Below, in pieces: positions 3,381 to 57,553 of a stretch of 64,000 nucleotides of DNA (position 1 is the stretch's first letter; every line of letters starts with the position of its first letter). The stretch is from IMG/VR virus record IMGVR_UViG_3300035670_000062, positions 49,099 through 113,098 of that record; one strand, given 5' to 3'. A model generated the notes under the pieces. It saw only the letters and a list, made by a program, of their open reading frames with translations, was not told where the DNA came from and did no database searches. This DNA is from a virus. The position numbers were made by a program, and so were the translations under genes.

Positions 3381-3710
3381 ATGAAAACATCAGAACTAAA
3401 AAATTTAATAAAAGAGGCAGTAAGAGAGGCAATTAAAGAAGAATTAAAAGAAATATTATTAGAAGCAATAAAATCTCCTAAATCTCAAATTAATGAACAT
3501 ATGATACCTCAAGTAAATTTATCCTCATCATCACCTCAAACAATGATAGATAAAAGAAGAGCGTATCAAGATGTAATAAATCAAACATCTCTAAATTTTT
3601 CATCTAAAGATATATCACAACCATTTATCCCAACTCAAACAGATCCTATAAATGGTGCATTACCTTCTGGTGAATTAAGTATGGATCAAATAATGAATCT
3701 AATGAAATAA
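3381..3710 (+). CDS. Hypothetical protein with a MKTSEL..LIKE leader
   Basis: Starts MKTSELKNLIKEAVREAIKEELKEILLE; TATTTATA at 3369-3376. Confidence 0.7.
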   Translation: MKTSELKNLIKEAVREAIKEELKEILLEAIKSPKSQINEHMIPQVNLSSSSPQTMIDKRRAYQDVINQTSLNFSSKDISQPFIPTQTDPINGALPSGELSMDQIMNLMK

Positions 3711-7538: not shown

Positions 7539-7797
7539 AAGTTTATTTATTATGATCCATCAAATAGTTACATTTGGTGGAGGTGGGTATGATTTTGAAA
7601 CAGTATATAGAATGCCTATTTGGTTAAGAAAATTTACATACTTACAAATAGTAGAACAAAAACAAGCTGAAAAAGAAGAAATAAACAAAGTAAAAAATAA
7701 ATCAAATTCAAATCAAACAAAATTTAATTTGGGAGATAAAGTCCCTCAACAATTAAAACAAACAAACAACACATACAACACAACAATGAAAAAATAA
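7471..7797 (+). CDS. Baseplate hub/tail assembly chaperone (T4 gp51-like); start uncertain
   Basis: Y..MPIWLRK motif; overlaps the end of the gp26-like gene and precedes the tape measure. Confidence 0.6.
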   Translation: MVQRRVQCLLRQDFFGLTLEYRKSLFIMIHQIVTFGGGGYDFETVYRMPIWLRKFTYLQIVEQKQAEKEEINKVKNKSNSNQTKFNLGDKVPQQLKQTNNTYNTTMKK

Positions 7798-7819
7798 AGC
7801 CCTAAATAGGGCTTTTTTT
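7796..7819 (+). terminator. Rho-independent terminator AAAGCCCT-AAAT-AGGGCTTT+T run
   Basis: Perfect stem plus T-tract; identical copy at 13087. Confidence 0.8.
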
Positions 7820-7843
7820 GTCTATTTATAATAAAATAAAGAT

Positions 7844-10463: not shown

Positions 10464-12382
10464 TGAGTCTAATAACTAAAAATACAAATTTAAAATCATT
10501 AGGGTTTGGTAAGGATAGACCTGGTGGTGGGAGTAGTAATCAACCATACATCAAGTCAAAACCTGAATCTCAAACTCCAAATGAGGATTTTATCCTTAGA
10601 GGAGGACTTAGAGCACCTGAAAGAGCAGCTGAAGATTTAGAAAGAATGACTAAAATGTTATTCGATTTAAAATCACCTAAAGGATTATTATTCACTGTAA
10701 AACAAAATTTATTATCTAGACTTTCCGTAGCCACTGAAGCCAGTATAGGACCTGCATATGGTAGTCCATCATTCATAAACACATCAACAAATGATTTACT
10801 ATGGACTAAATCAGCCGTAAATCAAGGTATTTACAACCCATTATCTTCCCTACTTCAAGTAAGTACAGGATATCTAGGCAACCACCTAAATACATTTGGT
10901 ATCAACCCATATTCGCCTTTAACTAACGTCATTGAAACTAATTTCTTACCTAATCTAGGATTAATTAGATATGAAGACGCAGTTAAACAAACTACTACTC
11001 TTACTAAAAGAATAAAAGTTCAAGAGTATAAACAAGACCCCAATGGAAGAAAAGATAGTTTTCTAGGAACAATTCCTTACACTATAGTTTCATCTAATAA
11101 AAGAGTACCTATAGGTGAAAATGGTCAGCAAAATAGATTAATTTATCTATATGAAAAACATACAGCAATTAAATCAGAAAACCCAACATTATTAATAGAA
11201 TATAATGGTGGTCCTGGTGCTGTTATGGGAGTAGGTAAAACTCAAATTAAATTTTCAAGGGAACAAAGAACGGGTATAAATAATTTTAATTTAACAACTA
11301 ATCCATTTTTCCTTAAGGGAGGAATTGAATCATCTCCAACTTCAAGAGAAGATGACCTTAAAACAATAAATCTATTAGGATTATCAAAACTATCAAAACA
11401 ATCAGAATTATCTGAACCCCTTGAAGAAAATTTAACCTTAGATAAATACACTGGATATAATGAAGATTTCCAAAAAATTACAATAGAACCAGAAATAAAA
11501 TCTGAACCAATAATTGTTGATTTTAGAGGATTATACCCATATAGTGATTCAAGTAAAGTAATTGAAGGAAATGATGGTTCAAGAATAAATCAAAGATCCC
11601 CAGGGAGAAAAGATGTTGAAGGTAAGACTTTAAATAAATATTCATTATCCAACAAACCAAAAGCAGTTGATAAAATAAATGCATATCCAATATATGAATC
11701 ACCACTAAGAACAAAAACAGAAACAGAAGATATTGGAAATGATTTAGTAAAATTCAGAATAGGAGTTATAAATGGTAATAAAAAAGAATATATCCATTTT
11801 AGAGCATTTATAGATTCATTTAGTGATTCATATTCAGGAAAATGGGACCCATTAAATTACATGGGAAGGGGAGAAAGTTTTTACAAATATGGTGGGTTTG
11901 AGAGAAATATAAGTCTTTCATTTACAGTAGCAGCCCAATCAAGAGCAGAATTAATACCACAATATCAAAAATTAAACTTTCTAGCTTCAACTTTAGCTCC
12001 TAATTATGGAGGTTCTGATTATATGGGAGGTCAATTAATTTCTTTGACTATGGGTGGATGGTTATATGAACAAATAGGATTTATTTCTCAAATAACTTTA
12101 GATGTTCCACAGGAATCCCCATGGGAAATAGGTATTGATGATGATGGGAATTATAGTAGAAATGAAAAAGACGAATATAATAAAACAGTTAAAGAATTAC
12201 CTCACATAGTAAAAGTTACTGGTCTCCAATTCACTCCAATCCACTCATTTAGACCTGAAAAACAAAAAATTGATTTTAACGAAAGTGGAGATATAGAATC
12301 ATATGGTGAACAAAGATTTATTGCTTTGGATGCAGGAAGGGAAGATACTAATGGTTGGAGTTATATCCCCCCAAAACCATAA
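10463..12382 (+). CDS. Baseplate/tail-tube initiator-like protein
   Basis: C-terminal FRAFIDSFSDSYSG.W....YMGRGE.FYKY.GF.R.ISLSF motif of tube-initiator-type proteins; located after the tape measure. Confidence 0.6.
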   Translation: MSLITKNTNLKSLGFGKDRPGGGSSNQPYIKSKPESQTPNEDFILRGGLRAPERAAEDLERMTKMLFDLKSPKGLLFTVKQNLLSRLSVATEASIGPAYGSPSFINTSTNDLLWTKSAVNQGIYNPLSSLLQVSTGYLGNHLNTFGINPYSPLTNVIETNFLPNLGLIRYEDAVKQTTTLTKRIKVQEYKQDPNGRKDSFLGTIPYTIVSSNKRVPIGENGQQNRLIYLYEKHTAIKSENPTLLIEYNGGPGAVMGVGKTQIKFSREQRTGINNFNLTTNPFFLKGGIESSPTSREDDLKTINLLGLSKLSKQSELSEPLEENLTLDKYTGYNEDFQKITIEPEIKSEPIIVDFRGLYPYSDSSKVIEGNDGSRINQRSPGRKDVEGKTLNKYSLSNKPKAVDKINAYPIYESPLRTKTETEDIGNDLVKFRIGVINGNKKEYIHFRAFIDSFSDSYSGKWDPLNYMGRGESFYKYGGFERNISLSFTVAAQSRAELIPQYQKLNFLASTLAPNYGGSDYMGGQLISLTMGGWLYEQIGFISQITLDVPQESPWEIGIDDDGNYSRNEKDEYNKTVKELPHIVKVTGLQFTPIHSFRPEKQKIDFNESGDIESYGEQRFIALDAGREDTNGWSYIPPKP

Positions 12383-12387
12383 AGACA

Positions 12388-12421
12388 TTTGGCTACCTCC
12401 TAATTTCTTCTTATATTTATA
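12388..12421 (+). promoter_or_regulatory. Bacteroidota-type promoter TTTG-N20-TATATTTA overlapping TATTTATA
   Basis: TTTG at 12388, TATATTTA at 12412. Confidence 0.55.
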
Positions 12422-12437
12422 ACAAATAACAAACTAA

Positions 12438-12737
12438 TTGTCTAGATACTCTCAAATACCTCAAATTAAATCCCCTAATAGGAAATTAATGTATAAAAAC
12501 ATTAAATATCCTCAAATACCAAGAAATATTAATGATATTTATGTTTACACTACTATAGGAGACAGATTTGATACTTTAGCATTACAATATTATAATGATT
12601 CTTCATTATGGTGGATTATATCAATTGCAAATGAATCATTACTTCAAGATTCTTTAATTCCCCCAATTGGGTCTCAAATTAGAATACCTACAAATTATTT
12701 AAATATTTTAGATGAATTTAATAGAATAAACATATAA
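12438..12737 (+). CDS. Baseplate wedge protein with LysM-like domain (T4 gp53-like)
   Basis: GDRFDTLALQYYNDSSLWWIISIAN...G.QIRIP; TTG start. Confidence 0.85.
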   Translation: MSRYSQIPQIKSPNRKLMYKNIKYPQIPRNINDIYVYTTIGDRFDTLALQYYNDSSLWWIISIANESLLQDSLIPPIGSQIRIPTNYLNILDEFNRINI

Positions 12738-13089
12738 AAATAAACAAATAAACATGAAAAAATCAGAACTAAGACAAATCATTAAAGAAGAAATTTCTAA
12801 AGTATTAAAAGAAGATACAAATACTGAAGTCCAAATAACTCCATATTATGATTTTTATAAAATAATTTTTCCATCAGGATTCGAAGATGAATTTTTCGAA
12901 TCTAAAGATGAAACTAAATTATTTACAGATACAATAATGGGAAACAACCATTATAATAAATTAATTGATAATTTAAAGAAGAACAATATTCCATATAAAG
13001 AAAGAAAAGCAAGATTAGATAATTCTGTTAGAATAGAAATACCTAGAACTTTATGAAATTAGATGAATTTAACAGAATAAACATATAAA
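12708..13089 (+). repeat. 31-bp direct repeat (12708-12738 / 13059-13089) flanking a leader-gene cassette
   Basis: TTAGATGAATTTAA(T/C)AGAATAAACATATAAA, one mismatch; duplicates the 3' end of the gp53-like gene. Confidence 0.9.
12754..13056 (+). CDS. Leader-bearing hypothetical protein (MKKSELRQIIKEEISKVLKE)
   Basis: Shared leader; flanked by direct repeats. Confidence 0.8.
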   Translation: MKKSELRQIIKEEISKVLKEDTNTEVQITPYYDFYKIIFPSGFEDEFFESKDETKLFTDTIMGNNHYNKLIDNLKKNNIPYKERKARLDNSVRIEIPRTL

Positions 13090-13110
13090 GCCCTAAATAG
13101 GGCTTTTTTT
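13087..13110 (+). terminator. Rho-independent terminator identical to 7796-7819
   Basis: AAAGCCCTAAATAGGGCTTTTTTT followed by TATTTATA at 13114. Confidence 0.8.
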
Positions 13111-13133
13111 ATCTATTTATAATAAAATCAGGT

Positions 13134-14252
13134 ATGGCTAATATAATAGGAGAACCTTTTAAAGATTATGTAAATAGTCAAATTGAAGCTAGACAAGAAG
13201 TTCATGGTAAAATTTCTGATAGGACTATAGATGAAATTCAATATCTTAATTCAAGAAATGCTTGGATTAAAATGGCATCTGGTATAACTATAGATAAAGA
13301 AAGATTAGGCTATTTAAAAAAATCTAACCCACTAATCACAGATTCTATGTTAGGTAAAGAGTTAGCAATGAAATACATTTTATTTAATGGAATATCGACA
13401 GTAAGTCAAACATTAATAAATGATCCTAATGATTCAACCAAACAAATCCAGCAAGGAACATTATCTCAAAAGTCTGGTTTAAGTGATAAAAACTCTTCAT
13501 ACGATTATACCTCTCAATTTAAATATTCTCCAATGCCTGGTATATTGAATGCTGATATAAGATGTATAAATAGAGGTTCAATCAAAAAAGCAACAATTAA
13601 TATTAAAGTTCATAATAAATATCAGTTAGATATAATTGATACTTTATATATGAGATTAGGATATACTGTAATGTTAGAATGGGGTTATGATAAATATTGG
13701 GATGATAAAACTAAATCATTAGAAAAAATGGGTCCATCTTTAATAGACAATGAATATTGGCAAGATATATACAACAATACTGATTATTCAAAATGGTTAC
13801 CTAAAATAGAAGAGAGAAGAAAGATATGTAGAGGAAATTATGATGGAATGATGGGTATGGTTACTAACTTTTCTTGGAATTTTAATAGTGATGGTAGTTA
13901 TGATGTTAAAATAGAAGTAATAAGTTTAGGAGATATCATAGAATCACTTAAAGTAAATTTACCTCCACTATCAACAGAAACAGACAAAAGTTTATACGCA
14001 CAATTTGCAACAAATAGTTTTGGAATATCTGCCGAAGTTCTAGAAGCATACAGAAATAGCCAAGATGAAAATTTCTTCTCTTTACTAGAAAAAAATAAGA
14101 GTAAAAACAGAATATATAATTATTTTTATAATATAAGAAAATACTACAATACTCTCCCACAATCAGATATAGAATATTATACAAATACAGGTGAAGAACG
14201 TTTCGATTATACAACCACCAAACCAATTCCTGGATTAAGTGGAGCAGGCTAA
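13134..14252 (+). CDS. Baseplate hub-like protein (N-terminal part)
   Basis: PMPGI..., LYMRLGYTVMLEWG and GNYDGM.G.V.NFSW...DGSYD motifs; position in the baseplate module. Confidence 0.55.
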   Translation: MANIIGEPFKDYVNSQIEARQEVHGKISDRTIDEIQYLNSRNAWIKMASGITIDKERLGYLKKSNPLITDSMLGKELAMKYILFNGISTVSQTLINDPNDSTKQIQQGTLSQKSGLSDKNSSYDYTSQFKYSPMPGILNADIRCINRGSIKKATINIKVHNKYQLDIIDTLYMRLGYTVMLEWGYDKYWDDKTKSLEKMGPSLIDNEYWQDIYNNTDYSKWLPKIEERRKICRGNYDGMMGMVTNFSWNFNSDGSYDVKIEVISLGDIIESLKVNLPPLSTETDKSLYAQFATNSFGISAEVLEAYRNSQDENFFSLLEKNKSKNRIYNYFYNIRKYYNTLPQSDIEYYTNTGEERFDYTTTKPIPGLSGAG

Positions 14253-14265
14253 ATAAAAAAATATA

Positions 14266-16356
14266 ATGAGTAAGAAAATAGAATTTAATATAAATAATAT
14301 AGGACTTAATGAAATAGGTAAAACATTAAATCCAACTATAGAAGATACTTCCGAGAATGTGAGGAATAATTATATGAATGAATGGAATACTAATGTTACA
14401 TACCCCATATACACTCCCGAAATTGACTCATCAGATATAATAAAACTATTTATTAAAAATGAAGAAGAAAGTTTTTTTATTAGATTAGGTACTTTATTAG
14501 GATTCATTAATGATAAAATAATTCCTAAGATAGAATCAACCTCCCAACCATTAATTACTATAGATACTGATGAAAAAACTAACATATGTTATGTTATAGA
14601 TAATATTATATCTAACGATATAAGAAAAGTAATAATAAAAAATGATAGATTTTATAATGGAACTGAAACTGAAGATTTTTTATTTACTGGGTTAAATGAT
14701 TTTATAGTAGAAGAGTATGATAGTAGTACATTATATGGTCAAATAATGAACATTTATATAAATTTTAATGAAGTGTTAACGTTATTTGATAATGTAGATG
14801 AAAAAAATGAAATTAATTTATTTGAAATTTTATCCTCTATATGTAAAATGATAAATCAATGTTTAGGAAATGTAAATAATTTAGAACCTATAATTGATGA
14901 AGAAAATATTACTGTAAAAATTATTGATCAAACACCTATTCCAAATATAGATCTAATAGTTAAAAAACTAAACCCTCAATACCTACAACCAGAAGATAAT
15001 AAAGAAGTAATATTACAATTATATGGATATAATAATAATAAATCTAACTTTATAAGAAATATAAATCTTGTTACTGAAATCTCAAAAAACTACTCAACGA
15101 TGATATCCATTGGTGCTACATCTAATGGAGCTATTCCAGGAGCTGAATCAACAGCATTTTCAAAATGGAATGTAGGACTAACAGACCGATTTAAAACTCA
15201 AATAATAGATGCCAATGCGAATACGGGCTCATTAGAAGACCAGAACTCAGTAGTAATAAATAATTATATAGATTTTATTGCTCAAACATTCCTCAAAATA
15301 GGATTAAATCAATCCCCACCATTTGAAGTAAACACAGAAGTAGTAGATACTAACACTACAGTAATAGAAAACTTTTACAAATACGCTCAAGCTCAATCTT
15401 CAAAAAATGAAGAAAATTCAATTGAAAGTTCAGTAGGATTCTTACCATTTAATTTAAAAATAGAAATGGATGGAATAGGAGGTATCAAAATATATAATAG
15501 AGTAAAAACAGACACTAGATTTCTCCCATCCAACTACCCAGATACTTTACAATTTATAATAACTGGAGTGAACCATAAGATATCAGATAATGATTGGGTA
15601 ACATCATTAGAAACAATAGCAACTATAGATAATAATCAAGGTAAAAAAAATATATCTGTAAAAGAAATATTAAAAAATTATTCTACTCAAATAGCAATTA
15701 TACAACAACGACAAGCATTAGAAGCTAGAAACCAAAGTACTCGAAGACAAGACTCTTACAACAATTCAGATTGTTCAGAAGATTCTAAAATACCACTATC
15801 AGATAATTATAATTTAGCACAACTTTCATGTAATACCGATTATGCTAAATATTCATTACCTAAAATAAAAAAAACAGGAAATTCCTATTATGATCCTTCA
15901 AGAGAAGAAATAATTCAAAATCTTACACAATTAGCAAAAAATATTTTAGAACCATTAAGAAAAAATTACCTTATAAATAATGAAAATGATATCTCAATAA
16001 CAGCAGGATATAGGAATCAAGGTAAAATAAGCCAACATGAAATAGGTCAAGCGGTAGATATCCAATTTTATTCCATAAGAAAACAATCTATATCTGACCA
16101 AAACAGATTAATGTTAGAAAGAGCTAAAGAAATTGAAAAATTATTATTTCCAAATTACGATGATTTTATATTAGAATATAAAATAATAGGTACACAACAA
16201 CCATGGATTCATATATCTTACAGAACAAACCCATCACCACGTAAGCAAAAACGGACAGCTATTACGTATGGAGACCCCCAAAAGCCTACAGTAGAATATT
16301 TTGCTGGATTTCTTAGTTTTGAGGATGCTAAAAAAAAGATGTCAAAAAATAAATAA
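14266..16356 (+). CDS. Baseplate hub protein with a C-terminal peptidase M15-type cell-wall hydrolase
   Basis: The hub-like segment ends FIITGVNHKI...W.T.LE. The C-terminus has TAGYR..SQHEIGQAVDI..WIHISY, the Zn-binding H-x6-D..H of M15. Confidence 0.75.
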   Translation: MSKKIEFNINNIGLNEIGKTLNPTIEDTSENVRNNYMNEWNTNVTYPIYTPEIDSSDIIKLFIKNEEESFFIRLGTLLGFINDKIIPKIESTSQPLITIDTDEKTNICYVIDNIISNDIRKVIIKNDRFYNGTETEDFLFTGLNDFIVEEYDSSTLYGQIMNIYINFNEVLTLFDNVDEKNEINLFEILSSICKMINQCLGNVNNLEPIIDEENITVKIIDQTPIPNIDLIVKKLNPQYLQPEDNKEVILQLYGYNNNKSNFIRNINLVTEISKNYSTMISIGATSNGAIPGAESTAFSKWNVGLTDRFKTQIIDANANTGSLEDQNSVVINNYIDFIAQTFLKIGLNQSPPFEVNTEVVDTNTTVIENFYKYAQAQSSKNEENSIESSVGFLPFNLKIEMDGIGGIKIYNRVKTDTRFLPSNYPDTLQFIITGVNHKISDNDWVTSLETIATIDNNQGKKNISVKEILKNYSTQIAIIQQRQALEARNQSTRRQDSYNNSDCSEDSKIPLSDNYNLAQLSCNTDYAKYSLPKIKKTGNSYYDPSREEIIQNLTQLAKNILEPLRKNYLINNENDISITAGYRNQGKISQHEIGQAVDIQFYSIRKQSISDQNRLMLERAKEIEKLLFPNYDDFILEYKIIGTQQPWIHISYRTNPSPRKQKRTAITYGDPQKPTVEYFAGFLSFEDAKKKMSKNK

Positions 16357-37133: not shown

Positions 37134-37976
37134 ATGAATCTTAAAAATTTACAACAACTCATAAAAGAAGTTCTTTTTGAAGAAAAAACAAAACGGGATA
37201 GATGTCTTCGTATAGCAGACAAAAAATTTGATAAACCATCAGCTTATAAATCAGGAGCAGTAGTTAGATGTAGAAAAGGTGATATTTGGAAAGGATTAAA
37301 AGAAGCCAAAGAATTAAACGTCCAAGATATAGCATACCAACAAACACCAGGCTTATTAGAAAAAGGGATTAAATATGAATTAGCTCATTTTAGGGGATTT
37401 ATGAAATCCTTTTATAAATGGAGTGGTCCAAAAGATAGAAATGATTTTTTTGATTTTATAGAAAATGTAAAAGGAGAAATAAAACGAGTTCCTTTATCAT
37501 CTATAAAACCTTCCCAACTTGATAAAGACTACAAAAACCCATCTTCAGAATACGAAGCAGAAGAATTTCAAAAAATATTATCAGATGAAAAGGATGCTAA
37601 AGACCATAGAATGGCAGATTTTTATCCTATATTAGTTAATAAAAGAGATAATAAAATAATAGATGGTAATCATAGACATTATGCATTATCTGCTATAAAT
37701 TCACCATATGCTGTAGTATTGCATGTAGATGTACCTAAACAATATTTAAATGAAGATGAATCACTTCATAAATGGTTTAAACGCTCAGGCACACCAGGTA
37801 AAGAGGGTGGTTGGGTTGATTGTAATGCTCCAATTCGTAAAGATGGTGAAATAACAGGATATAAATCATGTGGTAGAAAAGAAGACGAGAAACGTGCAAA
37901 ATATCCTTCATGTCGTCCTACACCATCTCAATGTAAAACACCTGGTAAAGGTACTAAATGGGGTAAAACAAAATAA
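37134..37976 (+). CDS. Multidomain protein with a central ParB/Srx-like domain
   Basis: PILV..KIIDGNHR..AL. Flanking small Cys/basic modules are delimited by LFE, LKE and LNE. Confidence 0.65.
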   Translation: MNLKNLQQLIKEVLFEEKTKRDRCLRIADKKFDKPSAYKSGAVVRCRKGDIWKGLKEAKELNVQDIAYQQTPGLLEKGIKYELAHFRGFMKSFYKWSGPKDRNDFFDFIENVKGEIKRVPLSSIKPSQLDKDYKNPSSEYEAEEFQKILSDEKDAKDHRMADFYPILVNKRDNKIIDGNHRHYALSAINSPYAVVLHVDVPKQYLNEDESLHKWFKRSGTPGKEGGWVDCNAPIRKDGEITGYKSCGRKEDEKRAKYPSCRPTPSQCKTPGKGTKWGKTK

Positions 37977-38597
37977 TATATTTACAATAAAAATATGAAA
38001 AAATCTGAATTAAGACAAATTATTAAGGAGGAAATTATAAGAGAGTTATTTGATACAAAAGAAAAAATCAGATGGCGTGAGGGTGAAGATTCAGATTTCA
38101 CTGCTACCTTTACTGGTCCTAACGATCAGAAATACGTAATAGACATTACTTCCTTAGAATGGTTAACATTACCTAATAGTGCTACTATTACTGCAAGTAA
38201 ACTTTTACCTGACGCAGCTATTGAAATGTGGGAAGACGGTCAAGGATATCATGTTGAATTTAGAGATGTTAAGAAAGGTAAAGGTATTACTGGGTTAGGT
38301 GGTACTGATACAGCAAAAATCTTCGGTATTGTTATTAATGCGTTAGTTGATAAAATGAAACGTGAAAAGGCTGAGCTTGTATTCTTTTCAGCCAAAGAGC
38401 CTTCTAGAAAAGAGTTGTATAAAAAAATAGCACCACTTATAGCAACTAAGTTAGGAATGAAGCAAGTTAATAATGGTACCTATTATTTTTTATATCTTTA
38501 AATTATGAGAAAATACATAAAAATAAGAGTGGATGTAGAGGACCTCTATGTAAAACACCTGGTAAAGGTAAAAAAATGAGGTAAAATAAAATAATAT
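37931..38597 (+). repeat. ~50-bp imperfect direct repeat (37931-37979 / 38548-38597) flanking a leader-gene cassette
   Basis: ATGTAAAACACCTGGTAAAGGTA is identical for 23 bp, then ..AAATG.GGTAAAA.AAAATAATAT. Confidence 0.9.
37995..38501 (+). CDS. Leader-bearing hypothetical protein (MKKSELRQIIKEEIIRE)
   Basis: Shared leader; flanked by direct repeats. Confidence 0.8.
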   Translation: MKKSELRQIIKEEIIRELFDTKEKIRWREGEDSDFTATFTGPNDQKYVIDITSLEWLTLPNSATITASKLLPDAAIEMWEDGQGYHVEFRDVKKGKGITGLGGTDTAKIFGIVINALVDKMKREKAELVFFSAKEPSRKELYKKIAPLIATKLGMKQVNNGTYYFLYL

Positions 38598-54363: not shown

Positions 54364-56016
54364 ATGTCACAATTAAATTCATTATTAGAAAGTGCATCTC
54401 AAAGTTTCAAAAATTTGAACAACGATGCAGCTAGACTAGCTAAAAAATGGTCAGCAACAGGTCTATTAGAAGGCCTAAGTAACGAGAACGAAAGAAACAG
54501 TATGTCTATGTTACTTGAAAACCAAGCTAAACAATTAGTATTGGAATCAAACAGTACAAACCAAGGTGGAGCTACCTTTTCAGGAGGTGGTCAAGGTGAA
54601 CAATGGAATGGAATTGCATTACCATTAGTGAGAAAAGTATTTGGACAAATATCTTCCAAAGAATTTGTTTCATTACAAACAATGAACATGCCTTCAGGTC
54701 TTGTATTTTACTTGGATTTCCAGTATGGACAATCAAAAAGACCAAATTTTGGACCTTCAGGAGACGTATTTGCTGAAACTTCATCATTATATGGTAACAC
54801 AAACCCAGGTGCTGCTGCAAACCCAGCAGGAGGTATGTATGGTGCTGGAAGATTTGGTTATTCAATTAATCAATTTAAAGCTACTGTAACTTCAAGTAAC
54901 GTAACTACAAGTTCTGCAGATTGGGTAGATGTTGATTATGATGCTGCTTTATCAGCTTCAATTGCTGCTGGTGATTTGACAAAAATTACTATCCCAATTT
55001 CTGGTTCATTAACTAGACCTGATTTGAAAGGTGTAAGAGCATTTAGTGTGTCTGCTTCTACTGCAAATCCTGCATTCTTATTACCTGCTTACACTTCAAC
55101 TGATGGAACTAACATTACGTTTGTATTTGCTTCAGGTTCAGGTGTAGCTCAAGGTGGTGTAGACGTATACTACAACCAACAACCAGTTGATAACAACAGA
55201 GGTGATTTTGAAGATGTAACAAACGGTGGTTTCCCTAATGCTCAATCTCAAACAGAACTTTCAATCCCATCAATTGATGTGAAAATGAAATCTGAAGCTA
55301 TTGTTGCTAAAACAAGAAAATTAAAAGCACAATGGACACCTGAGTTTGCTCAAGATTTGAATGCATACCAAGCATTAGACGCAGAAGCAGAATTAACTTC
55401 AATCATGAGTGAGTATATTTCAATGGAAATTGACTTAGAAATCTTAGACATGTTGATTCAAGATGCTTCAGGTTTCGATGAATATTGGAATGCTTCAAAC
55501 AACCAACAATTGAATGCTGCTAAAACAGGATACGATAACTTAGGTTTCTATAACACTCAAGGTCAATGGTTCCAAACATTAGGTACTAAATTACAAAAAG
55601 TAAGCAACAAAATCCATACTAAGACTATGAGAGGAGGAGCTAATTTCATGGTAATTAGCCCAACTGTAGCTACAATCATTGAATCAATTCCTGGATTTGC
55701 TTCAAACGCTGATGGTGATGCTGCTAAAAACAAATTTGCATTCGGTATCCAGAAAATGGGTCAAATGAATAGCAGATATGATGTATACAAAAACCCTTAC
55801 ATGTCTGAAAACGTGATTTTAATGGGTTATAGAGGTAGCCAATTCTTGGAAGCTGGTGCGGTATTTGCTCCATATGTTCCATTAATCCAAACACCTTTAG
55901 TATACGATCCAGATACCTTCACTCCAAGAAAAGGTATGTTAACAAGATATGCTAAGAAAATGATAAGACCAGAATATTATGGACGTGTATTCGTTTCTAA
56001 TACTGAGTTAGTTTAA
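54364..56016 (+). CDS. Major capsid protein (T4 gp23-like)
   Basis: KW...LLEG, LLENQ, LPLVRKVF, Q.M..PSGLVF, AKTRKLKAQWT.E.AQDL and APYVPL..F.P.KG..TRY motifs. Confidence 0.97.
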   Translation: MSQLNSLLESASQSFKNLNNDAARLAKKWSATGLLEGLSNENERNSMSMLLENQAKQLVLESNSTNQGGATFSGGGQGEQWNGIALPLVRKVFGQISSKEFVSLQTMNMPSGLVFYLDFQYGQSKRPNFGPSGDVFAETSSLYGNTNPGAAANPAGGMYGAGRFGYSINQFKATVTSSNVTTSSADWVDVDYDAALSASIAAGDLTKITIPISGSLTRPDLKGVRAFSVSASTANPAFLLPAYTSTDGTNITFVFASGSGVAQGGVDVYYNQQPVDNNRGDFEDVTNGGFPNAQSQTELSIPSIDVKMKSEAIVAKTRKLKAQWTPEFAQDLNAYQALDAEAELTSIMSEYISMEIDLEILDMLIQDASGFDEYWNASNNQQLNAAKTGYDNLGFYNTQGQWFQTLGTKLQKVSNKIHTKTMRGGANFMVISPTVATIIESIPGFASNADGDAAKNKFAFGIQKMGQMNSRYDVYKNPYMSENVILMGYRGSQFLEAGAVFAPYVPLIQTPLVYDPDTFTPRKGMLTRYAKKMIRPEYYGRVFVSNTELV

Positions 56017-56042
56017 TCATTTAAAACATAACTGAAAAGAAG

Positions 56043-56071
56043 GAGCCAAGTAAATACTTGGCTCTTTTTTT
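56043..56071 (+). terminator. Rho-independent terminator after the major capsid gene
   Basis: GAGCCAAGT-AAAT-ACTTGGCTC plus T-tract. Confidence 0.85.
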
Positions 56072-56131
56072 ATATGTAAACATTTGGTTACTTTAAAGAA
56101 AATTCATATATTTATAATAAAAAATAACAAA

Positions 56132-56764
56132 ATGAAAAAAAGCGAATTAAGACAACTAATCAAAGAAGAAATCTCTAAAATAAAAGAAATTGATAGCTAT
56201 GGTAAAATAGGAAAACAATACCCAGCCCCAGAGTATGAAGATGAACTTAAAGGGAAACTAACTAATCAAAAAAGATTGTTAAGAAAAAAGATGAGCCAAG
56301 ATAAATTTGCTAAAATAACAAAAGATTTATTTGATGATGCTTCTAAAGGATTAATTTTCATCTCAGACTACCCTAAGGATAATAAATATTCTGCACTTTT
56401 TGTAGATGAAAATAGTAAATATAAAAATCTTTTAACAGGAAAAGAAAATTATGGTTTAAATGATATACCCTATACATATAATAAAGCTTTACCAAAATCC
56501 GAAGCTATTACTCCTCCACATAAATTAGATATAAGGACTTTCCGCAAAATAATTTATGGTGTGCTTACATCTGGCCCTGGCGAGACATTTTACATTACTA
56601 ATTTCCTCCCAGACTCAGTTACTGGTATTGGAGATATGATTCAAGTGGGAAGAGGTGGATATGTAGTAGAAAAATCAAAATTTAAGAGAGAAAGTAGTGA
56701 TTATGGTTTTCCACAAGAATTAGGTAATGGTTTAGCATATGTCCCATTTTTCTTTAGAAATTAA
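56132..56764 (+). CDS. Leader-bearing hypothetical protein (start corrected from 56084)
   Basis: ATG of MKKSELRQLIKEEISKIKE lies downstream of the TATTTATA at 56109. Confidence 0.8.
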   Translation: MKKSELRQLIKEEISKIKEIDSYGKIGKQYPAPEYEDELKGKLTNQKRLLRKKMSQDKFAKITKDLFDDASKGLIFISDYPKDNKYSALFVDENSKYKNLLTGKENYGLNDIPYTYNKALPKSEAITPPHKLDIRTFRKIIYGVLTSGPGETFYITNFLPDSVTGIGDMIQVGRGGYVVEKSKFKRESSDYGFPQELGNGLAYVPFFFRN

Positions 56765-56794
56765 ATAATCATTTAAAACATAACTGAAAAGAAG

Positions 56795-56821
56795 GAGCCA
56801 AGTAAATACTTGGCTCTTTTT
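56795..56821 (+). terminator. Rho-independent terminator (repeat copy 2)
   Basis: Same hairpin as at 56043. Confidence 0.85.
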
Positions 56822-56887
56822 GTCTGTAAATATTTGGTTACTTTAAAGAAAATTCATATATTTATAATAAATAAACAAATAAATACA

Positions 56888-57436
56888 ATGAAAAAAAGCG
56901 AATTAAGACAAATCATCAAAGAAGAGATTTCTAAAGTATTAAATGAGGAAATTGACATATCTACTGAGTTAGTTAAATTTTTCCAAACTAATCCCTTCAC
57001 AAAAGAAAACCAGTGGTCACATGACTATGAAGCTAAAGATTACATTCAAAATGTAATGAATAGACCTTTAACTCCAAAAGAAAAAAGCCAAATTACTAGA
57101 ATGATAAATAAATATCGCGATGATTTTTGGGGAAAAAGTTACAGAGAAGAAAGAGATAAAGAAGATAAAACATCAAAGGAACGTTATTTAAATAATCTTC
57201 TTCCTTTAACTGTAGACAATGGAAGAGGAAGACCAGACAGTACATACTATACTGTAGCTAACACATACTATTATACAGACAACGATGGAAATACATCAAC
57301 TTCCCACATTGACTCTAAAAGTGGATACACTGATTATAAATTAAGAGATAAATGGATAAACACTCCAGTAGACAAAGCAACATTAGACAAATATTGGCAT
57401 CCAGGAACATTAAGAATGATAGGAATAAAAAATTAA
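56888..57436 (+). CDS. Leader-bearing hypothetical protein (start corrected from 56810)
   Basis: ATG of MKKSELRQIIKEEISKVLNE lies downstream of the TATTTATA at 56859. Confidence 0.8.
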   Translation: MKKSELRQIIKEEISKVLNEEIDISTELVKFFQTNPFTKENQWSHDYEAKDYIQNVMNRPLTPKEKSQITRMINKYRDDFWGKSYREERDKEDKTSKERYLNNLLPLTVDNGRGRPDSTYYTVANTYYYTDNDGNTSTSHIDSKSGYTDYKLRDKWINTPVDKATLDKYWHPGTLRMIGIKN

Positions 57437-57466
57437 AATTAAAAATCCTAAGTATAAAATTAAATC

Positions 57467-57494
57467 GAGCCAAGTAAATACTTGGCTTTTTTTT
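57467..57494 (+). terminator. Rho-independent terminator (repeat copy 3)
   Basis: GAGCCAAGTAAATACTTGGCTTTTTTTT. Confidence 0.85.
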
Positions 57495-57553
57495 GTCTGT
57501 AAACATTTAGTTACCCCAAACATTATTCATATATTTATAATAAATAAACATTT

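Follow-up and report, generated by a model that had tools for sequence, protein, structure and literature searches.

On the plus strand of a 64-kb window, by which we mean the whole stretch of DNA analyzed, a LysM-type baseplate wedge gene and the next gene of the baseplate operon are separated by a small gene starting at position 12754 and by a terminator-promoter module. The last codons of the wedge gene occur a second time behind the small gene (Table 1). The window represents the final part of a 113-kb phage record of IMG/VR with an estimated completeness of approximately 69%. By a family search of the genome, head genes of the T4 type (Peptidase_S77, Gp23 and Portal_T4) were detected, each of which scored above its own Pfam cut-off; the S77 head protease gave 87 bits with PF03420. 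The source is an uncultured, T4-like phage. Allowing for at most one mismatch, the late-type promoter motif TATTTATAATAAA was found 26 times against 4.9 expected matches, and 22 of the 26 lie on the plus strand. Matches whose flanks were inspected are located 8 to 25 nt ahead of a start codon.

Table 1. Features of the wedge gene locus and of two further flanked cassettes in the window
Feature	Position	Strand	Remarks
Late-type promoter motif TATTTATAACAAA	12414-12426	+	Ahead of the wedge gene; sole such motif upstream of the cassette
LysM-type baseplate wedge gene	12438-12737	+	99 aa from TTG 12438, or 82 aa from ATG 12489
Repeat copy 1	12708-12738	+	Native 3′ end of the wedge gene: last 9 codons and stop, with 2 bases from the codon before and 1 base beyond the stop
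Left junction and 5′ untranslated remnant	12733-12753	+	TATAA-AAATAAACAAATAAA; TATAA(A) common to target and donor
Inserted leader gene, 100 aa	12754-13056	+	Leader MKKSELRQIIKEEISKVLKE, linker, beta-rich domain
Mini-ORF MKLDEFNRINI, 11 codons	13053-13088	+	ATG overlaps the TGA of the leader gene
Repeat copy 2	13059-13089	+	Duplicated target, 30/31 identical to copy 1
Terminator-promoter module, 47 nt	13087-13133	+	Hairpin 13087-13106, U-run, then TATTTATAATAAA at 13114-13126
Next baseplate gene, 372 aa	13134-14252	+	Starts -8 to +42 nt past the wedge stop in relatives
Second cassette	37927-38590	+	3′ end of the 37134 gene (37927-37973) repeated at 38544-38590, 79% identity
Third flanked cassette	56014-56874	+	Repeat of approximately 110 nt on either side of leader gene 56132-56764

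The wedge gene product matched the baseplate wedge subunit PHROG 7145 (E = 3e-9), and given this match the label 'gp53-like', which an earlier sequence-only reading had assigned to the gene, was reasonable. Wedge proteins of relatives begin with MARYSNQ... or MNRYIDQ..., in agreement with the form starting at TTG. Positions 12708-12738 (TTAGATGAATTTAATAGAATAAACATATAAA) and 13059-13089 constitute a direct repeat of 31 nt, in which 30 nucleotides are identical and a T is replaced by C at position 16. The starts of the copies are 351 nt apart, and the 12754 gene lies between them. In 30 order-2 Markov shuffles of the window, not a single pair of 31-mers with at most one mismatch appeared at a spacing of 31 to 2500 nt. 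The real window contains eight such pairs, the others being leader starts, terminator-promoter modules and fiber-domain repeats. Thus, the 31-bp duplication with one mismatch, which had been noticed from the sequence letters, was corroborated. An exact-pattern scan of IMG/VR for the repeat yielded no other occurrence. Translation of copy 2 gives MKLDEFNRINI*, which affirmed that the mini-ORF at 13053 was created by the second copy; most likely it is a by-product. The terminator was also correctly placed after the second copy, its stem starting within the last bases of the latter.

We compared the locus with 164 loci of IMG/VR and metagenome contigs that encode relatives of the wedge protein (46-70% identity) or of the next baseplate protein. 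In all of the approximately 135 loci in which both genes could be placed, the wedge stop and the following ATG are separated by -8 to +42 nt, while the distance in the phage studied here is 396 nt. Since the flanking genes abut in these relatives, the region 12739-13133 is a lineage-specific insertion. Copy 1 encodes NILDEFNRINI, which can be aligned with the conserved C-terminus I(I/L)AE(F/Y)xxIN(E/K) of the relatives' wedge proteins, indicating that copy 1 is native and copy 2 is the duplicate. By these data the proposal that a cassette was inserted with duplication of its target was confirmed, and recombination between the copies would, as had been noted, lead back in formal terms to the undisturbed gene order. 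No empty site in a close relative was found, the scans of IMG/VR and metagenome contigs guided by the wedge protein peaking at 68-70% identity, and a DNA search of GenBank phages with positions 11000-15000 gave no match. For the next baseplate gene, one relative has a counterpart of 91% identity (P0007, on a contig of 1,206 nt). One short contig of a relative (L188) contains a different small gene (MIKLISLLKEL..., 821-1197) directly after the wedge gene, so that the wedge junction has been struck independently. Apart from the insertion, the locus differs in its downstream baseplate protein, which is a single ORF of 793-1136 aa in relatives and split here into 13134-14252 (372 aa) and 14266-16356 (696 aa) with 13 nt between them. 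In an alignment, the 696-aa part corresponds to residues 403-906 of the fused L011 protein.

The 12754 gene is one of nine genes in the genome that open with MKKSELRQ(I/L)IKE and then diverge completely. Leaders of the MKKSELRQ type also head unrelated genes at 53 other IMG/VR loci. For the leader serine, some copies use TCA and others AGC, which suggests that the leader peptide, rather than the DNA, is under selection. The 12754 protein, modeled with AlphaFold on the basis of three homologues, exhibited a detached, low-confidence helix at the N-terminus, followed by a linker and by a compact beta-rich domain comprising residues 26-100 with a pLDDT of approximately 95. For this domain, no convincing structural relative was obtained (best E-values of 0.25 with Foldseek in the PDB and 0.04 in BFVD; best Z of 4.9 in VIA-align wide). 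Structural matches to a LAGLIDADG half-domain and to the MotA C-terminal domain were at noise level and were set aside. The protein gave no Pfam or PHROG match. Its homologues P0002 (76%) and P0003 (64%) have the C-terminus ...SVRIEIPRTL in common, indicating that the 12754 gene is complete and its stop codon native. Scans of IMG/VR, GenBank phages and prokaryote genomes did not recover the contigs encoding P0002 (7,410 nt) and P0003 (143 kb). We conclude that an accessory gene of the moron or ORFan-cassette type was acquired recently at 12754, and that it belongs to the leader-tagged family of this phage. Near the end of its leader, the protein contains the tripeptides IKE and LKE. The presence of a T4-type head protease together with a leader ending in this manner makes a capsid-targeting tag plausible, and by analogy the N-terminal leader probably acts like the capsid-targeting sequence of T4.

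The left junction was located by comparison with the paralogous cassette 56888, which matches the 12754 cassette at 85% over 83 nt starting from 12733, within the last 6 nt of copy 1. The sequence TATAA-AAATAAACAAATAAA agrees at 20 of 21 positions with the TATAAT box and the 5′ untranslated region of the 56888 leader gene. Because the similarity to the 56888 promoter starts in copy 1, we place the left join within an overlap of 5-6 nt, formed by 'ATA TAA' of the wedge gene and TATAAT of the donor. A join inside the TATAAT box means that the cassette lost its own promoter. Between 12427 and 13113 no promoter motif was detected; the late motif TATTTATAATAAA resides at 12414 and 13114. The right join, 2 nt past the stop codon of the leader gene, is devoid of terminal microhomology. 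Similarity upstream of this join was at chance level, as 13% of random windows scored equally. A possible homeology of the cargo 3′ end with the part of the wedge gene that precedes the repeat (AATACCTA.AA.TT) was not significant and was dismissed.

At its 3′ end the cassette shows a plain G+C hairpin with a U-run. The stem AAAGCCCU/AGGGCUUU (13087-13106) is followed by seven U, the terminator spanning 13087-13113, and for the 71-nt stretch 13050-13120 that includes it a structure of -13.4 kcal/mol (z = -3.0) was predicted. An Rfam search produced only terminator-like matches below threshold. Three other IMG/VR contigs also contain the hairpin sequence, each time in an unrelated context. The whole module 13087-13133 is a near-copy of the module 7796-7843 ahead of gene 7844, a probable tape-measure gene as judged by position and size only; in the tail region, the unit of approximately 47 nt, reaching from a stop codon to ATGGCT, occurs at these two places. 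At the junction of the wedge and the next gene it was absent from all relatives examined, so that the module itself seems to move. The module at 13087 is an acquisition separate from the cassette. Outside the window (G000:C1:33282-33686 and neighbors), another repeated hairpin-plus-motif module, composed of GGCTCC...GGAGCC and then TCGTATCTTTA, flanks small genes. These modules upstream of the window are probably the early-gene counterparts of the late modules.

The 12754 cassette is not the only one with a scar. In the second cassette, the repeat has a length of approximately 47-53 nt and is decayed, and copy 2 runs into the ATG of the next gene. Its interior is composed of the leader gene 37995-38501, which retained its promoter, and 45 nt of donor DNA starting with AAATTATGAGAAAAT, exactly as MRKSELRQ leader genes of other phages do. 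The gene upstream of this cassette (37134-37976, 280 aa) itself opens with the leader-like sequence MNLKNLQQLIKEVLFEE. Its homologues in relatives are far shorter (138-157 aa), only both ends being common. In the relative G003, a junction of the 37134/38596 type holds two cassette genes with the leader MIKLLDIL..., which are joined by ATGA/TAATG overlaps without any duplication. A second leader class, MIKL(L/I)..L(N/K)E, can be defined from the gene after the wedge gene (L188:821-1197) and from L259 (G003:C1:52400-55400, reverse strand) between the 37134/38596 homologues; neither the L188 nor the G003 insertions of this class show a target duplication.

The repeat of the third flanked cassette consists of the capsid gene stop codon and the terminator-promoter module, the first 56 nt being identical. 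The region 56014-57547, after the capsid gene and ahead of phoH, is a PeSL-like array, in which three modules of hairpin and late promoter bracket two leader genes. For the solitary leader genes 3381 and 6477 in the structural region, no flanking repeat was found. Among 105 leader genes of the genome and the 53 other loci, eight possess flanking repeats with a score of at least 28, compared to approximately 1% of control ORFs. Five of these eight cases are repeated regulatory modules. The three flanked cassettes have no common core sequence. In another phage (L057:4001-4901), a leader gene is followed by approximately 33 nt equal to the 3′ coding end of the next leader gene and by the common terminator-promoter module, a pattern suggesting that the body of a gene is exchanged while its conserved leader and a conserved 3′ module stay in place.

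Attempts were also made to identify enzymes that might have mobilized the cassette. It is true that the window contains no integrase, as the sequence-only reading had stated, but a Xer-type tyrosine recombinase of 265 aa is encoded elsewhere in the genome (G000:C1:167-964), about 48 kb before the window start and 61 kb upstream of the cassette. This protein scored 116 bits with PF00589 and 187.7 with a XerA-type model (cut-off 220), the latter being higher than its score with the integron-integrase model TIGR02249 (154.6 bits, below the cut-off of 265 bits; best stretch residues 4-181). Adjacent to it are a gene for a DksA/TraR zinc-finger protein and ORFs of GroES and GroEL size (101 and 545 aa, judged by size and sequence only). 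In five relatives with leader genes, each at least 92% complete, the recombinase is absent. When the 31-nt repeat was inspected for a dif-like arm-spacer-arm structure, the best arm match was 7/11, a score reached at 2% of all genome positions. There is nothing that links the Xer-like recombinase to the repeat. Neither a resolvase nor a GIY-YIG protein or reverse transcriptase was found in the genome, the ends of the insert do not exhibit a transposase-like inverted repeat of the sort that bounds IS elements or ultra-small, MPME-like phage transposons, and the inserted unit encodes the 100-aa protein only and no recombinase of its own.

We give about an even chance to an illegitimate template-switch insertion from a leader-gene array that was accompanied by a short target duplication. 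According to this model, a donor segment reaching from inside the TATAAT box to 2 nt past the stop codon would have been copied or recombined from the array. It would have entered just after the stop codon of the wedge gene by template switching or by two non-homologous joins, the left one via the overlap TATAA(A) of 5-6 nt. The phage template would have been rejoined 31 nt upstream of the place where it was left, which would have led to a second copy of the final 31 nt of the wedge gene. As only outcomes that leave both essential neighbor genes whole survive, a duplication and not a deletion would be expected, with a repeat length varying between cassettes. The target duplications of this genome have no fixed length (31 nt at 12754, approximately 50 nt at 37995 and none at 3381 and 6477), and a repeat that is variable and optional points to illegitimate recombination filtered by selection rather than to a dedicated enzyme. 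The promoterless cassette would be read from the late promoter of the wedge gene, while the module after copy 2 would end the wedge/cassette transcript and restart transcription for the downstream baseplate genes. On the other hand, an overlap of 5-6 nt is weak evidence in DNA with an A+T content of 70%. The donor boundaries are derived from the paralogue 56888, which stands in for the actual donor. Both the recombination mechanism and the order of events relative to the terminator-promoter module are what we infer, and the need for a separate event to bring in this module counts against the template-switch model. A retro-copy derived from mRNA was considered as well, since the insert starts near the expected transcript start, but it was rejected because cassette 37995 keeps its promoter and the genome lacks a reverse transcriptase.

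The sequence-only reading had instead suggested single-crossover integration of a small circle. A circle of approximately 351 bp, consisting of the leader gene and the last 31 nt of the wedge gene, would have recombined with the target by general recombination, as proposed for PeSL mini-circles, or by the Xer-like tyrosine recombinase of the phage. The copies would then be equivalent to attL and attR, and the unit would leave again when the reaction runs backwards. A direct repeat equal to the 3′ end of the target gene is indeed what integrative elements leave, and the length of the repeat is near that of dif sites, which are approximately 28 bp long. The genome also encodes the Xer/integron-integrase-like recombinase described above, and repeats of promoter plus stem-loop of the PeSL sort surround the 56132 cassette. 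Moreover, T4-type phages form PeSL mini-circles of 400-1400 bp by recombination between flanking repeats and package them (Arbiol et al. 2010, PMC2839356). However, the circle must already hold the wedge sequence, so that a prior insertion at the same locus by another route is still required and circle integration cannot explain the first insertion. Unbroken identity extends over just 15 + 15 nt, which is short for homologous recombination, and no clear arm-spacer-arm symmetry beyond chance was seen in the repeat. The absence of a core sequence common to the three flanked cassettes, the location of the recombinase some 61 kb away and its lack in the five nearly complete relatives argue against a circle too. 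Furthermore, the 37995 insert extends beyond a single array unit, and the 45 additional nucleotides from the donor are better explained by a linear donor segment than by a unit circle. Given also the other repeat length at 37995 and the missing repeats at 3381, 6477 and in G003, the circle was not borne out as the mechanism, and we regard it as unlikely, even though the sequence alone cannot separate it from the template-switch model. Still less probable, in our opinion very improbable, is that the 351-bp unit is a recombinase-less selfish cassette cycling between an integrated and a circular state and spreading among co-infecting phages at the wedge site via Xer-like or general recombination. 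The claim of an excisable mini-element is unsupported.

A quite unlikely origin of the arrangement is a tandem duplication of the wedge unit, e.g., by unequal crossover between the similar promoter regions 12404-12426 and 13104-13126, after which the second wedge unit would have been replaced almost entirely by the leader gene, with only the last 31 nt of that unit left. These promoter regions, at a distance of 700 nt from each other, agree at 78% over 23 nt, and the leader gene of L057, with the 3′ end of its neighbor and the terminator-promoter module, displays the pattern expected from duplication of a unit followed by replacement of its body. But such a pathway takes more steps than direct insertion (a duplication and a two-ended replacement), there is no further trace of a second wedge-gene copy, the left junction lies exactly at the stop codon, and the same coincidence would have to be repeated at the 37134 gene. 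It is scarcely credible that an assembly artefact or population mixture, in which variants with and without the gene were joined at a common k-mer, produced an arrangement existing in no single genome. Such an error may be suspected in a metagenome contig with a 31-nt repeat close to common assembler k-mer sizes. The repeat copies differ, however, at one base, and any join of this kind would need both junctions in real molecules. The identical cargo protein is present on two contigs and the wedge protein on three, the gene order is coherent, and a working terminator-promoter module follows the cassette. An independent contig of 3,017 nt (P0004) encodes the same cargo protein plus 'WN', as a change of TGA to TGG followed by AAT TAG would give. 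This read-through matches the downstream bases of the window, implying the same right junction and thus speaking against an artefact.

The entry of small genes into packed, conserved structural operons is usually invisible because the junctions decay. Two insertions in this one genome have kept their scars: the target is duplicated, the junction cuts a promoter, and flanks of the donor are still present. Taken as a whole, the scars point to copy-and-paste from a leader-gene array through illegitimate recombination rather than to the work of a dedicated mobility enzyme, the appearance of a scar being shaped by selection for intact neighbor genes. They do not show the 12754 gene to be an active mobile element. 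If the leader is a capsid-targeting tag, the locus would also show that candidate genes for injected proteins can become established away from the clusters in which they normally reside and be transcribed with the late baseplate genes.

The insertion bears resemblance to several known systems. The morons of tailed phages described by Hendrix, Juhala and colleagues are extra genes that lie between structural genes adjacent in relatives and are followed by a terminator. In the same way, the 12754 gene is situated between two genes adjacent in approximately 135 relatives, with a terminator after it. Unlike a moron, the cassette is without a promoter of its own, which was lost at the insertion junction, and it has a visible 31-nt target duplication, a trait that reportedly does not belong to the moron definition.

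The internal-protein genes of T4 carry a capsid targeting sequence, and their loci are polymorphic among T-even phages. Here as there, unrelated small proteins have a common short leader that ends with hydrophobic-x-Glu, and a S77 head protease is encoded. The leader, however, comprises approximately 20 residues of another sequence, and the 12754 gene is a single tagged gene in the baseplate operon instead of a member of a leader-gene cluster.

Islands that integrate into tRNA genes and Xer-exploiting IMEX elements insert at the 3′ end of a gene and bring along their own copy of that end. Likewise, the repeat at the wedge gene equals the 3′ end of the target, which is intact after the insertion (30/31, copy 1 native). 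In contrast to these elements, the 12754 unit has no recombinase and its repeat no recognizable recombinase site, and the other cassettes of the same genome possess unrelated repeats or none. A selfish cassette would turn the unit into a phage-borne analogue of the Xer-exploiting elements, an equation that we hold to be highly doubtful.

The PeSL cassettes (Arbiol et al. 2010, PMC2839356; Comeau et al. 2014, PMC4122927) likewise stem from T4-type phages, in which small ORFans are shuffled as units. Composite modules of terminator and promoter are repeated around cassettes in our phage as well (56014-57547; 7796/13087), and the repeats could release a small circle. The feature of two bracketing promoter-plus-stem-loop modules is present at the 56132 cassette but not at 12754, where the module is on the right only and the left side is formed by the coding repeat of the upstream gene. 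The modules also differ in that they carry a late-type motif instead of an early sigma-70 promoter. The 12754 insertion is a real, recent scar of a leader-tagged ORFan in a T4-like baseplate operon and a variant of the known traffic of cassettes and morons.
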